From the NCBI GenBank assembly GCA_963803975.1, contig CAWDOY010000053.1:1-64000 (forward strand): a stretch of DNA of 64,000 nt, written 5' to 3'. The position numbers are program-made. Each line of letters opens with the position of its first letter. Positions within the stretch are counted from its first letter, which is position 1. The DNA comes from an uncultured delta proteobacterium. GTDB lineage: Bacteria; Desulfobacterota; WTBG01; CAIYCZ01. This document shows positions 39,001 through 45,000 of this stretch, piece after piece.

Positions 39001-42000
39001 CCTTATCTTGTGTATGGATATTCGCAAAGGGCATTATGGAAAAAACGGAGCAGCTTTCCCATCTAAATCACCTCAGCGCAATTCTGGATCATATCAGCTA
39101 ATTTTAACACAGGAACCAATAAATATACTGACCGCGGTCAAAAAACTTGACATGATAAATAGTTCTATGATTAGCTGTCAGGTAATTATAGTTATTACGC
39201 GTAAGAGCGGCGATGTTTCTTGCGGCCTAAAAGGCACGCATAAGGCCAATGGCGAGAACGAAATATTATCAATCCGATTAAAGGAGGGCATCATGAGACA
39301 GCGAGAACTTACGGCAGTAGTACTTGTTTTAATGGCAGTCCTGTTAGCTGCATGTTCTGAAGACAACATGCAATTTCTAAGCTCTAAAATAGAGATAGCG
39401 GCCAACCCTAAACTTGCAGAGTGGATACCGCGGCTTGCGTATAATTCAGTGGATGATGAGTTTCTGGTTGTCTGGACAGAGCAGGGCGGGCGGGTGCAGG
39501 GCGGGAGTTCGAAGTACGGCATTTTTGCCCAGCGGTTTTCCTCAAGCGGAGCGAAGATAGGCGCAAGCTTCAGCCCGGCAGGCCCTCCGGTAAACAATAT
39601 TATCCTGTTACCGACCCCTGAATATAATATGTTCACCAATCAGTATTTCATGGCCTACACCATGTCCGGGGTGGGGTTTGATCAATATGGGGCACTATTC
39701 AGCAATGCCGGGGATATCATAAAGCAGCCGTTCGCGATTTCAGAAAGACCTAAAAGCCAGATGCACTCCCGGGTCGCCTTTAATACCTTAAAGCGCCAGT
39801 TTTTTGTTGTGTATAACAGCAGCGAAAGCGGCAGCCCTGACGTCAAGGGGGTGATTCTGGATGAAAACGGCACGCCGGTTACCGATGAGTTGATGATCAA
39901 TGATGTCAAGGGCGACCAGTATAATCCCTACATAGCCTATAACCCGAAAGATGATACCTATCTTATCAACTGGGAAGATTTCCGGAACGTCCCAACCTGG
40001 GAGCAGAACGGGGAGATTTACGGGGCGCTGCTTGACGGCGACGGCAATGTGCTGGTCAATGACATTGCCATGATTGATGATTTCGGCACCCCCGATGAAG
40101 GCGATCAGCGCCTCAATGAAATCTCATACAATCCGGACCGGAATGAGTTTCTGGCTACCTGGAGCGATACTGCTCCCTCATTGAATAACGTCGGCGTGCG
40201 GGGAGTATTCATCACAGCGGACGGAAAACTTGCCGGGCCGATTTTTACCGTAGCAGATACTGTTGGCCCGCAGGTGTTTCAGCACACCATCTATGCCCCG
40301 GCCAGGAAGAAATATTTTATCCTGTGGGAAGACGGCAGAAATCAGGAAGACCTGACTTCCGGCTGGAAAAACATGACGGACCTTGATATCTATGGCAAAT
40401 GGATGAGCGCGGACGGCACGACCTTCAGCGATGAAGTTGTTTTCTGCAAAGAGCCGGGTATACAGCGCTATTCATCCCTCAGCTACTCTGAAAAAAGCGA
40501 CCGGATGCTGGTTGCCTGGCAGGATGTTGTTGATGAAGACCTGACCCTGGGTGAGACGGACGATCAATCAGGGCAGCATGTAAAAGAAAAGGGCGGTAAT
40601 GTGTATGCCATAGTCTACGGCACCCCCTGAAAATAGAAGTACAGTGTTGCTGTGAAAAAAGCGGAGTCATGCCGGCTCCGCTTTTTGTTTTGCAGGTATG
40701 AATCTTTTGCAGGTTTATTTGCGTTTGACACGAGCCGGACCTTTTTCTATACTGTATATATATGAATAAAATACACTGCAACGCTGCGACAGGCAGGGAA
40801 CATTAGGGAGGGGTATACCCATGGCAGACAAAAAACTTGAAGAAGTCATTGACTATCGCAATAAAGCGCGAGGAAGAGGCTATCGCCTTTTACCAGGGTC
40901 TTTATAACCGGGTGCAGGATGAAACTGCCAGAGATACGCTGCAGTTTCTTGCCGGAGAGGAGAAAAAGCATAAAGAATTTCTGGTCAGATACCGGCAGGG
41001 AAACTATACCGCTGATGCCCTGAGGATGAGCACGGTGGTCGATTACCGGATTGCCGAACACCTTGAGAAGCCGGACCCTGCGGCAGATATGGAAAGCAAG
41101 GATGTGTACCTGGTGGCGGCGCACCGCGAGCTTGCATCATACAATTTCTACACAGCACTTGCTGCGCTTCACCCTGACGGCGAGCTTAAACAGCTGCTCG
41201 TAAAAATCGCCGGCGAGGAACTGCGGCACAAGGAAAAAGTCGAATACCTCTACGCTAACACCGCGTTCCCGCAGACTGACGGCGGCTGAGCTGCTTATCG
41301 CAGGCTTCTGCCCAGGGCAACAAAAAGGTCCCTGGTTATTACACCCGGATGCCCTTTCTCTTTGGCGACCTGCTCGCTGAGAGCAATTATTTTGTCAATA
41401 AGCTGCTTCGCCGTCTTGCCTGTCAATGAGCACATCCGCAAGCGCCTGTATGGTGTGGGCGCACCACAGGCCCTTTCCTTTAAGGTGCTTTTTCACCGTA
41501 TCGACCAGCGCAAACTCCTCTATCACCTGTACTTCGCACTGCTTTGCAAAATCAGTGCTGCACAGCAGGCATGCTGCCGCGTGGCTCATGGCAAGCTCTT
41601 TGGGCTCAGGAGGATTTTCCTGCACCTGCCGGTAGCTGAAATCCTTTGCCAGGTCAGCAAAAGCTCTGGTCGTATTGATCGTGGTAATGCCTTTTATGCC
41701 CTGCTGCCTTGTTATTTCCTCGGCACGCTTCTGCACTTTTTTGCCCGTTTCAAAGGAAACCGTCCCGTCAGACATTGACGAGCTCAGGATGAAGCGCGCA
41801 TGGCAGCACCAGTGCATGGTCTCTGTTTCAATGACATCGTCATGATAGACCCCGCTTATATCCAGCTCGGCACGGCATATCTCGGAGAGCTTCGGCGGGC
41901 AGTAGCCGCACATTTTAATATAGTCGTTGGAATACTTCGGCACCCATTTCTGTTCGTCCGGCTTGAATGCATCGCCGTATTGTTTAAAGAACTCCTTCCT

Positions 42001-45000
42001 GCTCATCGAATTCCGGAACGTTTCAAAACAGGTGGTTGAGCAAAACACCAGGTCTTTAAGCTCAATAAATTTCATTACCAGGTCTTTCCCGCACTGGTGA
42101 CACAGTATTTGATCATCACTCATGAGTAATTCTCCTGTGGAAAAGGGGGTATCCCCGATAAGAAAGGGGCATCCCCGCTCTTGTGAAGTGATTATGTATC
42201 ATTTGATGGACCGGCCGAGCGCCAGGTAGTGGATGCGGAAATGCCCGCCCTTATACTCCTTTTCCTTCATAACCTTGCGCGATTTATCAATCAGCTTTTT
42301 TATCTTACCCATGTCAACGTTCGGGTTCAGAAGCATTGATGACATCTCATAGCGCATGTGACCGCAGTAGGGAAAATCAAGCAGCGCTTCTACCTGCGGC
42401 AGGTTCTTCTCGGCCTCCTCGGTCTCCCGCAGGCATTCATCCATGAACTTTTTGTCACACTGCACGCAGGCAAGATAGTGGTCATGCTCTTCTGCAGGCG
42501 GCGGAGGCGGGACGTCCGGATACGGGGCGTAGCTGAAGTCTTCCATCAGCTCACCCGTTGCCATGGCCAGCGTTACCGTGCTCACCCCGGCATTGCCGCG
42601 CTCGCGGGCAATCTCTTCAGCTTTTTTTATGACCTTCTGGACGACGTCCCGTGTGACCGAGCCATCAGAGAGCATGCAGCTCAGCGCATAGATGGCATGG
42701 CAGCACCAGCGCATGGAGATATCATCGTGCAGCTCCTCAAAATAGGCGCCGCAAAACGGGCGCACCTCGCGGCATTTGAGCACCAGCGGGCATTCCTGGC
42801 AGGTGCTCATGAAGCGGTCAACGACCGGCCCGAGAGCGGCAAAATCTATTTTCTCCAGGTCCAGGTTTTCCATGCGCTCGCGTCCCTGCTCGGCACAGTA
42901 TACCGAGCAGTGGAAATTTCCCATGCGCTTGATGGGGGTCTTCGTTATTGCCTTGCCGCACACCGCGCAGTTTTGCTGCTCAGCAGCTTCAGTTTTCTGT
43001 TTCTGCTTTTCCATAGGAGTGATTCCCTGCTTTCAGTGCCGGGTTCGGGTTATTTTTTATCCGGCTTCATGGGGACGAGATTCATCCCGCACTTGGGGCA
43101 TTTGCCGGGCTTGTCTGATATTACGTCCGGATGCATGGGGCAGGTATATTTCACCGCAGGCTCCTGATTTTTTGCCACCAGGTCCATGCCGCACTTGGGG
43201 CACTTGCCGGGCTTGTCCATTATTACATCAGCATCCTCGGGCATGGGGCAGGTGTAGGAAACTTTTCCCTGCGCTGCCTGCGAAGTCGTTACCGCACCTG
43301 CTGCGAGCAGCACTAGAGCTGCACAGGTAACAGCAATAATAATGACTACCTGTTTTTTCATAAGAACCTCCTTGTTAGTTGTGTTTGTTATAAAGTGCCG
43401 CAGAGAACACCGGAGCAGTCCGTGCCTTTCTAATTTGACGAGGGGGCAACAAATCAAAAGAACACATGCGCTCCTTCGTGAACTCTGTGGCGTATCCTAT
43501 TTAGTAGCACATTCTATTATATGTTTTTACACTCCGTGTTTCTTTTCCAGAGCAGATAGATTGCCGGATACACCAGCAGCTCCATTAGAAACGAGGTAAA
43601 CAGGCCGCCTACCATGGGCGCGGCGACGCGCTTCATGACGTCAGCCCCGGCTCCTATAGACCACATGATGGGCATGAGGCCCATGGCTGCGGCGGCCACG
43701 GTCATCATCTTGGGACGGATGCGCTTTACCGCGCCGTGGATGATCGCTTCATGCAGTTCGGCCATGTTTCTGAGCTTATTATTCTTTTTTGCCTCATCAT
43801 AGGAAAGATCCAGAAACAGGAGCATAAACACGCCGGTCTCCGCGTCAAGCCCCATGAGGGCGATCATGCCGACCCAGGCGGCAATGGATACATTATAGCC
43901 CAGGAAGTACATGAGCCACACCGCGCCCACCACCGAGAAGGGCACCGCCAGCATGACCACCGCTGCCTTGAACGCGGACTTGGTGTTCATATACAGCAGC
44001 ATGAAGATAAGGAAGATGGTCACCGGCACCACAACTTTCAGGCGCTCGCGCACCCTGAGCATATTTTCATACTGGCCGCTCCAGATAAGGGAATACCCGG
44101 TCGGCAGAGCTACATTCTGCATAACCGCTTTCTTGGCCTCATCCACATAGGAGCCCACATCCCGGTCAGCTATGTCCACAAATACATAGCCGGCAAGCAT
44201 GCCGTTTTCATCACGGATCATGCTCGGGCCCGAGATTGAGCGTAACTTCAGCCAGTTCAGCCATGGGGACCTGGATGCCATTCTTTGTGGTCACCAGGAC
44301 CCGCTGCAGCTGGTCGAGGTTGGCCCGCAGATCGCGCGGGTAGCGCAGGTTTATGGTATAGCGCTCGCGGCCTTCAACGGTGGTGGAAACGGTTTCGCCG
44401 CCGATAGCGTACATGATGACGTTCTGCAGATCTTCGATGGTGAGGCCATAGCGCGCAAGAGCTTCCCGCCGGGGAGTGAAATCCACAAAATAGCCGCCGG
44501 CCACACGCTCGGCATAGACGCTCCGGGTACCGGGAATGGCCTTGACAACTTTTTCAATGGCTTCGCCGGTGCTCTGGATTTTGCTGAGGTCGGCCCCGAG
44601 GATTTTTATCCCGATAGGCGTCCGCACGCCGGTGGAGAGCATGTCAATGCGGCCCTTAATCGGCATGGTCCAGGCATTGGTGTTGCCGGGGATCTGAATG
44701 GCCTGGTCCATCTCGTTGATGAGTTCATCATAGGACATGGTGTCAGGCCAGATGCGGCGAAATGCTGCTTTGAGCCATCCGGGGGCCCAGGATGAGTACC
44801 AGCGGTCTTTTGCGCGCCACTCAGAATGGGGCTTGAGCACCACGGTTGTTTCCATCATGGAAAACGGGGCCGGGTCAGTGGAACTTTCAGCTCGCCCGGC
44901 CTTGCCGAACACTGAGACCACTTCCGGGAAACTTTTTATGATGCGGTCCTGGGTTTCCAGGAGCTTCTGCGCCTCGGTGACGGAAATGCCGGGAAGGGTT

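Follow-up and report, generated by a model that had tools for sequence, protein, structure and literature searches.

A Cys/His-rich family of duplicated-domain proteins in copper-efflux islands, candidate copper acceptors of sediment anaerobes

Strict anaerobes are thought to avoid cytoplasmic copper, and metallothioneins, which are ~50 to 60 amino acids long, are largely unfolded without metal. The copper defence of anaerobes rich in Fe-S proteins has been little studied. Few cytoplasmic Cu(I) sinks are known to be governed by copper sensors; the excerpts of one account used here name MymT, CutC, CopZ, and Csp and describe chaperone transfer of copper by ligand exchange (PMC11672702). Csp3 is described, in part of its own account, as a four-helix bundle with 18 to 19 Cys per ~14.5-kDa monomer that holds ~80 Cu per tetramer and whose copper exchange with CopZ is reported to be slow (PMC5171941). 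TRASH domains occur in cop clusters (PMC7830388), and, according to passages of both sources, copper toxicity acts on Fe-S clusters (PMC5171941, PMC7830388).

We analysed a stretch of 64,000 nucleotides (the window) from an uncultured delta proteobacterium, for which a preliminary description had proposed a new Cys/His-rich duplicated-domain family. Both ORFs in the window, a copy on contig C15, and the repeats were confirmed:

42199..43014, minus strand: A, 271 amino acids (ORF, motif reading, and model)
41298..42123, minus strand: B, ~275 amino acids; as assembled 41395-42123, 242 amino acids, with an extra base near 41407
C15:32907-33812, plus strand: C, 301 amino acids (tblastn, E 5e-27 and 4e-42)

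A and B share 29% identity over 231 amino acids (E 2e-30). The B ORF exists as described earlier, but its end at 41395 needed correction: one extra base at ~41407 creates the early stop, relatives are ~275 amino acids long, and contigs from two independent studies lack this base, which places the true end at ~41298. The extra base is most likely an assembly indel, and several other genes of the island carry one to three indels each (listed below as frameshifts). Relatives of A and B are also represented in metatranscriptome contigs, which carry neither level nor strand information.

The general plan of the family is an N-terminal C4 finger followed by two repeats, each with CxxC-x5/7-C and then a W/Y-C-x-H motif that opens a helical bundle resembling PCP_red domains and AAA+ lids. 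In A, the treble-clef-like finger spans residues 16 to 40, repeat 1 contains CxxC-x5-C at 72-81 and WCCH at 103-106, and repeat 2 contains H179, CxxC-x7-C at 183-194, and YCGH at 216-219, with a helical bundle closing each repeat; the x5 spacing was seen in repeat 1 of A only, and most repeats have x7. The duplication is real, since hhalign matched repeat 1 to repeat 2 with a probability of 98.6% (E 1e-15, 90 columns). When 131 near-full-length A/B/C sequences were aligned, conservation of 98 to 100% was found for 13 Cys (A numbering 16, 19, 36, 40, 72, 75, 81, 104, 105, 183, 186, 194, and 217) and three His (106, 179, and 219), and the earlier report of 13 invariant Cys and three His thus holds. 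Model quality was likewise reproduced (AlphaFold pLDDT 84.9 and pTM 0.82, against 85 and 0.80 before), and the absence of a hydrophobic N terminus, judged by inspection, fits the cytoplasmic location proposed earlier. The CxxC knuckle, beta-hairpin, and CSxxC at a helix start, seen in the whole-protein model and the sequence, fit a TRASH/MYM treble clef, and the four finger Cys probably bind structural Zn.

Sequence and fold searches returned no known family or whole-fold match for the A/B/C family. Matches of the finger were weak (MYM zinc finger 2das, E 0.075; LIM, E 0.007). The metallothionein hint in Pfam noted previously is present: six of 29 members gave a PF02069 match (E 0.005 at best), for which the N-terminal finger is most probably responsible. 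An equally weak PCP_red hint had been missed, as PF08369 matched 8 of the 29 proteins at full length (E down to 0.009) and, when halves were searched separately, 5 of 26 (E down to 0.028). hhalign comparison of the repeats with the PCP_red-like N termini of neighbouring proteins gave probabilities of only 24% and 1%. PDB 2kru superimposed on the repeat bundle with TM 0.67 over the target (rmsd 2.6, 58 columns, 28% identity, E 1.7), and in a second structure comparison the PCP_red bundle tied with AAA+ lids at scores below significance (Z 3.3 to 3.4, rmsd 3.5, 61 aligned). Membership in two described families was rejected. For prokaryotic metallothionein, the PF02069 match lies below the curated cut-off and the proteins are 260 to 300 amino acids long. 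For Csp, the model shows a finger and two alpha-repeats over 271 amino acids instead of a ~130-amino-acid four-helix bundle whose core is lined by Cys in helical CxxxC/CxxC arrays, the Cys sit in loops and helix starts, and none of 29 members had a Csp match in Pfam.

A and B stand at the end of a csoR-cus copper island:

43050..43361, minus strand: secreted protein with two HMBD (YTCPMH) domains, directly upstream of A (PF19335, E 3.5e-27)
43517..46767, minus strand: cusA-type RND pump, two frameshifts (86-89% identity to an intact relative, whose family is PF00873)
46764..48300, minus strand: cusB-type membrane fusion protein with HMBD domains, one frameshift, start approximate (PF16576, PF19335)
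48324..49728, minus strand: cusC-type outer-membrane factor, one frameshift (PF02321)
49830..51790, minus strand: small secreted-looking genes heading the leftward run, conserved in relatives' islands (clusters 12, 9, and 13), namely unknowns of 148 and 98 amino acids, an FG-GAP-repeat protein, and a Cys-rich leader ORF broken by an indel
51950..51966, no strand: CsoR-type palindrome ATACCC-N5-GGGTAT, between the divergent cus-A-B run and csoR-copZ-copA
52007..52288, plus strand: csoR, x-C-H-C Cu(I)-sensor type (PF02583, E 2e-29)
52434..52644, plus strand: canonical copZ, one frameshift (comparison with relatives)
52747..55470, plus strand: copA P1B-type ATPase with three HMA domains, three frameshifts (PF00122, PF00403)
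55588..56495, plus strand: Dsr/Asr-like protein with PCP_red-like N terminus, NIR_SIR, and two [4Fe-4S], one frameshift (69% to the L046 copy; PF01077, Fer4)
56568..56966, plus strand: 133-amino-acid unknown with a CC(x)PC motif (51% to the L046 copy; recurs, seven loci)

The 133-amino-acid protein has no Pfam match, and PCP_red-NIR_SIR-Fer4 proteins recur in islands (L042, L046, L049, L062, L064, L074, L075, L084, and L101). The palindrome, classed by what we take to be the CsoR operator consensus, is overlapped by sigma70-like sites on both strands, and a like palindrome adjoins csoR in 11 of 28 loci scanned; none was found upstream of the genome's own C15 cassette. TACCC-N5-GGGTA occurs only three times in the genome, which is about the chance expectation, so that its position and not its rarity is the evidence for a CsoR operator. 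The neighbouring CsoR (C34, H59, C63, no N-terminal His) has the x-C-H-C motif given as the definition of Cu(I)-sensing CsoR in the section used here (PMC11672702). A and B are thus putative members of a CsoR regulon, going by palindrome and gene order.

The preliminary description had tied the family to copper operons, and this link was borne out. A copper gene lies within 1.5 kb of 32 of 45 distinct family copies (28 of 45 without counting the dedicated HMA gene described below), against a background of ~2% near copper genes in the window's own genome; the counts overstate the association because kin are not independent. By type, all 12 A copies have a copper gene within 150 bp, and 8 of 14 B, 11 of 14 C, and 1 of 5 B2 copies have one within 1.5 kb. 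Neighbours across loci comprise x-C-H-C CsoR, CopA, CopZ, Cus, cupredoxin, and multicopper oxidase. A often follows cusA directly or faces csoR, being the first gene divergent from csoR in L042, L046, L048, and L050, and the order csoR-HMAx-(NIR-like)-C-cusC occurs in L069, L074, and L101. The association held across phyla for A and C, and an unrelated Spirochaetota record has A in the order copZ-A-csoR-cusC (L060). The C15 copy, too, is not without a copper gene nearby, having a small HMA gene 19 bp upstream. Family matches were found in 15 of 21 genomes of the order, the same count as before, with up to 6 per genome, some being split HSPs of one gene. The family is rare phylum-wide, where 8 of 401 genomes had matches, one of them weak (3e-5) and in an argininosuccinate-lyase-like gene. 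Its previous description as small needs qualifying: a search at the 50% level gave 16 representatives at 1e-30, but at the 90% level the numbers of matches rise to 42 for A and 93 for C.

C-type genes carry a dedicated CopZ-like partner gene, HMAx, which matched PF00403 above cut-off in all three sequences tested (E 2.7e-11, 1.6e-8, and 7.4e-9). In eight sequences the motif M17-T-C19-x-G-C22 (MTCxGC) was invariant, as were 22 columns in all. At E<1e-20, HMAx occurs in 5 of 21 genomes of the order, the same five that carry C. Of 11 loci in which the DNA upstream of C is visible, 10 have HMAx there, and two records of Gammaproteobacteria (L065 and L068) have acquired C and HMAx together as a cassette of two genes. 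HMAx was not found in three fragmentary MAGs carrying C (L062 to L064), and in a Spirochaetota SAG with HMAx no C was adjacent or detected in that genome. A Schekmanbacteria C copy that lacks both HMAx and nearby copper genes is without the TxYP hairpin residues; it keeps 12 of 16 conserved interface positions, compared with 103 of 135 elsewhere, and this loss is therefore not in excess.

A complex of HMAx with C, which lies outside the window, was modelled with a score of 0.62 (0.00 for the best of three controls); 116 of 157 solved complexes attain the mark used, compared with 2 of 215 mismatched pairs. Contact agreement between runs was at least 87% and partner pLDDT at least 86, with one of three runs scoring 0.40. 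The predicted interface involves finger residues 19, 21-25, and 33-34, repeat-1 residues 101-113 including C113, which touches G21 inside the HMAx CxxC with an error of 3.0 Å, and repeat-2 residues 209-218 around C211/C214. The contacts at C113 and C211/C214 would place the repeat-1 WCCH and the repeat-2 CxxC on one surface; most low-error contacts fall on the finger hairpin and not on Cys. The model supports binding of HMAx by C, its CxxC facing these two motifs.

A divergent D branch keeps the repeat-1 CxxC-C and the repeat-2 WCxH and has lost both the repeat-1 WCCH and the repeat-2 CxxC-C, the motifs at the modelled interface. Its predicted fold is alike (pLDDT 87.9), which argues that the structure does not depend on the lost site. 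In the loci read, three of which had wide flanks, neither copper nor HMA genes were found near D. A family-5-type ABC transporter (annotated by inspection) follows the D-type genes, one of which adjoins a His-rich ORF. Four of five B2 copies are without copper genes, and B2 copies lie between lipid A acyltransferase and rpoD. Together with D and the Schekmanbacteria C copy, they indicate that the fold has a life outside copper islands.

The copper role proposed earlier is partly supported by these comparisons. That the family accepts Cu(I) from a chaperone in the cytoplasm and holds it at few discrete sites across the repeats, and is not a Csp-like bulk store, has in our judgment an even chance of being right. 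A, B, and C would be soluble metalloproteins of a CsoR-controlled copper-efflux island, in which the finger, with its probable structural Zn, may serve as docking surface. The two repeats are predicted to pack with pseudo-twofold symmetry, and we infer two composite thiolate/His sites: site X, from the repeat-1 CxxC-C and the repeat-2 C-x-H, and site Y, from the repeat-2 H/CxxC-C and the repeat-1 WCCH. A chaperone (HMAx for C, perhaps ordinary CopZ for A and B) would bind the finger hairpin with its CxxC beside the extra surface Cys of WCCH, from where Cu(I) could be handed over by ligand exchange. The protein may then act as a low-capacity, high-affinity acceptor or buffer while CopA and CusCBA export copper, and Cu(I) uptake would shield the Fe-S proteome. 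In this scheme the genes, repeats, ligands, copper context, and HMAx co-occurrence are observed, the fold and docking are modelled, and the cross-repeat sites, metal identity, direction of transfer, and physiological role are our interpretation. Of the storage function suggested earlier, the copper link stands, but storage in the manner of Csp3 or metallothionein finds little favour, given 13 Cys in ~275 amino acids, four of them in a probable Zn finger, and discrete ligand sites on a folded scaffold.

The main rival, which we consider unlikely, is that the cross-repeat sites hold 4Fe-4S clusters of the iron-staple kind, with an Fe-S redox or protective role alongside the PCP_red-NIR_SIR-Fer4 proteins and HMA docking to deliver or remove Cu at a cluster or beside it; variants are a copper-gated Fe-S switch or a Cu/Fe-S enzyme. 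The A-type CxxCPLxxxC resembles what we take to be the EndoIII loop motif, Fe-S proteins with a PCP_red-like N terminus recur in the same islands, and the D and B2 branches persist without copper genes. Each site would combine CxxC-x5/7-C with a remote Cys, as in AddB and EndoIII, the AddB ligands being given in the excerpt as C801, C1121, C1124, and C1130, that is, CxxC-x5-C plus a remote Cys (PMC3321194). The sensitivity of Fe-S clusters to copper may be read in the same direction, but Cu-labile clusters under copper induction require an additional assumption. Most repeats, moreover, have x7 and not x5, no member matched an Fe-S family in Pfam or NCBIfam, and the extra Cys/His per site and a CopZ-like partner aimed at it fit Cu(I) better. 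A bolder proposal, equally doubtful to us, is a new-fold copper-receiving metalloprotein whose cross-repeat Fe-S and/or Cu-thiolate cluster is loaded by its own CopZ-like chaperone and which, with the sulfite-reductase-like proteins, forms an active redox or sulfur-transfer pathway of copper detoxification or copper use in the anaerobe cytoplasm.

Quite improbable is a protein whose Cys sites are all structural Zn and which, as a scaffold or relay, holds Cu-loaded HMA chaperones and passes copper to CopA, CsoR, or a cuproprotein. The treble-clef-like finger with its weak MYM/LIM matches, the position of A after cusA or facing csoR, the low-error contacts at the finger hairpin, and the PCP_red/AAA-lid-like bundles, which are usually interaction modules, would suit it. 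However, the nine Cys and three His outside the finger, near invariant in the 131 sequences, exceed the need of two Zn sites, the HMA CxxC loop is placed on C113, and the fold of the D branch survived the loss of one whole site. Slighter still is the chance that the proteins are general binders of soft metals (Ag, Hg, Cd, and Zn), or homeostasis proteins, recruited into copper islands in one lineage, with copper incidental. MTCxxC HMA domains also carry Hg and Cd, and the surroundings of the D-type and B2 genes could be read this way, but each kind of neighbour (x-C-H-C CsoR, CopA, CopZ, Cus, cupredoxin, and multicopper oxidase) indicates Cu(I), and A and C stay with copper genes in more than one phylum.

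As a Cys-rich family, previously undescribed, in copper-export clusters of sediment anaerobes, these proteins are candidates for a new kind of intracellular copper acceptor. The scaffold is new and comes with a residue-level hypothesis, namely, a private CopZ-like chaperone, a docking hairpin (T21/Y23/P24), and an entry Cys (C113), for which the D branch is a natural one-site variant usable as a control. A CopZ subfamily for a client that is neither ATPase nor regulator would bear on whether bacteria keep or route cytoplasmic copper.

Among known systems, the family resembles Csp3, as far as excerpted, in being cytosolic, helical, and Cys-rich, with proposed Cu(I) sequestration beside CsoR/CopZ/CopA (PMC5171941), but it consists of a finger plus two repeats, carries its 13 Cys, spread over ~275 amino acids, in CxxC/CxH motifs, has a dedicated chaperone, and gave no Csp match in sequence or fold searches. 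With metallothioneins (SmtA/BmtA, PF02069; MymT of the RicR regulon) it shares the weak PF02069 match and, as for MymT, a Cys-rich gene under a CsoR-family sensor, whereas it is a folded protein of 275 amino acids whose match is far below cut-off. The N-terminal CxxC-x16-19-CSxxC finger recalls TRASH/YHS/MYM-FCS fingers (archaeal CopM/CopR TRASH), but contributes only ~40 of 275 residues and four Cys and is modelled as a docking face for the HMA protein. Iron-staple 4Fe-4S proteins (AddB, Cas4, and the EndoIII loop) have CxxC-x5-C plus a remote Cys, in the part of the account used (PMC3321194), a spacing seen in the family in repeat 1 of A only; the family is without a nuclease or glycosylase fold, has mostly x7, and carries extra Cys/His. 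Each repeat ends in a predicted three-helix bundle starting W-x3-A-x2-L that resembles PCP_red (PF08369; PDB 2kru and 2l09) and AAA+ lids at scores below significance; PCP_red is without metal ligands, whereas the family has Cys/His in the positions that follow Trp, two copies of the domain, and CxxC-C hairpins in front. HMAx, finally, is a true HMA domain with MTCxxC whose modelled CxxC faces target Cys, as in CopZ/Atx1 pairs. The targets described for CopZ comprise the HMA domains of CopA, regulators, and Csp; the target predicted here has a fold unrelated to these, and the chaperone forms a subfamily of its own that accompanies a single gene.

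Two adjacent genes of the window's copper island, A and B, and a third paralogue, C, on another contig (C15) of the same genome represent the family:

42199-43014, minus strand: A, 271 aa
From 42123 to a stop at 41395 as assembled (the frame continues to 41298), minus strand: B, 275 aa in relatives
C15:32907-33812: C, the third paralogue of this genome

A and B are 29% identical over 231 aa. The window copy of B has one extra base near 41407 that is left out by contigs of two independent studies, and its truncation was therefore rejected as real biology. Since nine further indels lie across six genes of the same island, the indels are most likely assembly errors. 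Single-base frameshifts were abundant (34607-35534, 40822-41289, and 43517-56495, and also glyQ and a rubrerythrin-like gene), a pattern typical of error-prone assembly and not of gene decay; two are absent from the contigs of other studies.

The family had been assigned to 15 of 21 genomes of the order in the preliminary description, and the same count was obtained here. A phylum scan gave matches in 8 of 401 genomes, one of them a weak false match. Relatives belong to Thermodesulfobacteriota/delta proteobacteria, one Spirochaetota, two Gammaproteobacteria, and one Ca. Schekmanbacteria, and a Dehalococcoidia protein falls in a distant branch. At 90% clustering, A had 42 matches and C had 93; two chimeric-looking proteins (P0042 and P0051) were excluded from counts. 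In one relative (G019, L035:2146-4005), a single gene coding for a redoxin plus multiheme cytochrome c is inserted between A and B. An obligate A/B/C hetero-oligomer is unlikely, with single copies in four of five outside genomes, though those genomes may be incomplete.

The 13 Cys and 3 His residues reported earlier as invariant proved to be 98 to 100% conserved in 131 near-full-length sequences. In the AlphaFold model of A (29-row alignment; pLDDT 84.9, pTM 0.82), a small beta-hairpin/helix finger is predicted at residues 16 to 49, followed by two helical repeats. A comparison with hhalign shows the two repeats to be homologous (98.6%, E 1e-15, 90 columns); each has CxxC-x5/7-C, about 22 residues, and then W/Y-C-x-H at the opening of a three-helix bundle. 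A tree of 51 rows separated A, C, B/B3, B2, and D, with strong support for most splits; B3 joined B/B2 at just 88/63, and long branches were flagged. The A-type protein of the Spirochaetota (P0032; L060:2750-3892) has an additional C-terminal DUF2621/PCP_red-like domain (E 0.0096).

Copper genes (csoR, cop, cus, HMBD/YHS, or HMA) were counted within 1.5 kb of 45 distinct copies, that is, 47 rows minus one duplicate and one split gene, after 17 of 35 loci had been dropped as duplicates. The proposed link to copper genes held for 32 of the 45 copies (28 without counting the dedicated HMA gene), against a background of about 2% of the own genome that near any such homologue. By branch, the counts were 12/12 for A (all within 150 bp), 8/14 for B, 1/5 for B2, and 11/14 for C; kin among these are not independent, and the Spirochaetota record shows the same link. 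Exceptions were B2, mostly located between a lipid A acyltransferase gene and rpoD, and the Schekmanbacteria copy, which lies among LPS genes.

In the window, a leftward run encodes, in order, a Cys-rich leader, an FG-GAP protein, two unknowns, cusC, cusB, cusA, an HMBD protein, A, and B, and is divergent from csoR-copZ-copA-NIR-like-orf133. Between the two runs lies one palindrome:

51950-51966: ATACCC-N5-GGGTAT; promoter-like sites overlap it on both strands

Palindromes of like kind adjoin csoR in 11 of 28 loci scanned. An argument for an operator from motif rarity was dropped, as TACCC-N5-GGGTA occurs three times in the genome, as chance gives; the other two matches (C34:1703 and C42:60429) lie within coding genes and look like chance. 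The window CsoR has C34, H59, and C63, and is by its residues of the x-C-H-C type, which a portion of PMC11672702 gives as the Cu(I) type of CsoR.

Further genes recur in these islands. The leader heading the cus run is a Cys-rich, secreted-looking ORF with a PPP/LFL-type tail (window 51361-51790; L101:8613-9077). Two unannotated secreted-looking proteins (49830-50630), one of 148 aa and beta-rich and one of 98 aa with Trp/Arg/Asn repeats, are conserved on the upstream side of cusC in islands that carry the family. Another recurrent pair is found in the window and at L042, L046, L049, L062, L064, L074, L075, L084, and L101:

55588-56495: PCP_red-like, NIR_SIR, and 2x[4Fe-4S] protein
56568-56966: 133-aa CC(x)PC protein

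The first of these has a form with a C-terminal HMA domain at L049:7053-8264. PCP_red-NIR-like paralogues were also seen at C53:109852-115234 and C30:17624-18482 of the own genome, one in a cysK/APS-reductase-like cluster for sulfur assimilation, which may point to where the Dsr-like gene of the island came from.

C-type genes are preceded by a distinct gene for a 75- to 84-aa HMA protein (HMAx), 19 bp upstream on C15. At an E value of <1e-20, HMAx was found in 5 of the 21 order genomes, the same five that carry C, and it lies upstream of C in 10 of 11 loci with visible DNA (eight adjacent, one of these frameshifted, and two with a NIR-like gene between). The pair stands alone in two Gammaproteobacteria records, nested among deltaproteobacterial C copies in the tree. 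No HMAx was found in three MAGs that are fragmentary and have C at the end of a contig, and a Spirochaetota SAG has HMAx with A as its sole family gene. None of the 93 matches (153 to 531 aa) was an HMAx-C fusion. Upstream of the pair (C15:31480-32888; L017:35-1443), one gene product is by inspection flavin-binding-barrel-like and continues into a small Cys/His domain; in a different copper island (L042:6926-7117), that domain is encoded by a separate gene of 64 aa. The other product is a secreted protein resembling cupredoxins, seen too in L064.

When C (10-301) was modeled in complex with HMAx (5-77), the score was 0.62 (individual runs, 0.62, 0.40, and 0.63), against 0.00 for the best control. 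Of 157 solved complexes, 116 attain this mark, as do 2 of 215 mismatched pairs. Contacts agreed by at least 87% between runs and partner pLDDT was at least 86. The model supports binding of HMAx to C without showing it. The predicted interface comprises the finger hairpin (19, 21-25, and 33-34), repeat 1 (101-113), and repeat 2 (209-218) of C, and the MTCxGC loop and helix (16-31), 39-42, and 67-71 of HMAx, with C113, the second Cys of WCCH, predicted to contact G21 within the HMAx CxxC. Of the 69 C-type proteins whose finger is complete, 59 have a TxYP-type hairpin and six lack it outright; these six are the Schekmanbacteria-like branch, in whose one searched genome HMAx was not found. This co-absence is only suggestive, because the Schekmanbacteria copy keeps 12 of 16 interface positions versus 103 of 135 elsewhere, a loss not beyond general divergence. 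The modeled docking pertains to C; A and B share all the putative ligands.

In the same interface model, repeat-1 WCCH and repeat-2 CxxC lie on a single surface. Independently of the model, the six D-type proteins, from the distant branch, keep repeat-1 CxxC-x7-C and repeat-2 WCxH and have lost both repeat-1 WCCH and repeat-2 CxxC-C, in a fold predicted to be alike (pLDDT 87.9). Ligands shared across repeats would be the simplest account of this paired loss, and the site lost in D may be the one that HMAx faces. No copper or HMA gene was nearby in the D-type loci read. In two high-GC lineages, D-type genes precede what by inspection is a family-5-type (peptide/nickel-type) ABC transporter (L096:7971-12390 and L098:6349-11303), and one D-type locus is flanked by a His-rich ORF; a metal-uptake role is possible.

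Our leading interpretation, itself an even call, is that family members accept Cu(I) in the cytoplasm, that each has a Zn finger as dock and two discrete sites, and that they are loaded by CopZ-type chaperones and induced with the efflux pumps. The Zn finger of A, B, and C would be the docking site for the chaperone, from which Cu(I) would pass to the two sites by ligand exchange, as modeled for chaperone transfer in part of PMC11672702; joint induction with the pumps would spare Fe-S enzymes, on which copper toxicity acts according to sections of PMC5171941 and PMC7830388. The storage role suggested initially is disfavored in the bulk sense of Csp3, which has 18 to 19 Cys per monomer and binds about 80 Cu per tetramer (PMC5171941), versus 13 Cys here. 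Rather doubtful is the alternative that the sites hold 4Fe-4S clusters, with the iron-staple spacing described in part of PMC3321194, and work with the recurrent PCP_red-NIR_SIR-Fer4 neighbors; a novel type of Cu/Fe-S pathway is likewise a tentative idea. A Zn scaffold relaying copper seems unlikely, and a general soft-metal binder more improbable still.

No entry rose above cutoff in Pfam (A and B, 29 members, and 26 half-domains) or NCBIfam (14 members). PDB sequence searches gave best E values of 0.075 and, in another, 0.009, the latter to a designed helical protein. Fold searches started from the A and D models. Foldseek had no match at an E value of ≤0.001, and VIA had best Z scores of 5.7 and 5.0, with none ≥8; most of its matches were to AAA+ lids or to unrelated helical proteins. 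The ESM Atlas gave 0.80 at best for A and no usable match for C 70-301. Such missing family or whole-fold matches do not prove a new fold; the finger was hardly covered by the fold searches. A resemblance to the Clp N-domain or histone fold was presumed by us; the histone fold was rejected (TM 0.12 to 0.26 in the fold-search rows), and the Clp N-domain was absent among the matches listed. No description of the family was found in the literature on copper with PCP_red, CsoR/CopZ, TRASH, or anaerobes/sulfate reducers, subscription papers being outside this scope, and the accessible parts of PMC13474568 and PMC7558416 hold nothing on it. The helical bundle of the repeats is similar, below significance, to PCP_red, with PF08369 matched by 8 of 29 members (best E 0.009) and 2kru matched at an rmsd of 2.6 (TM 0.67 over the target), and also to AAA+ lid domains (Z 3 to 5). 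The family would work like the known Cys-rich copper sinks of CsoR regulons, yet is a member of none of those families.
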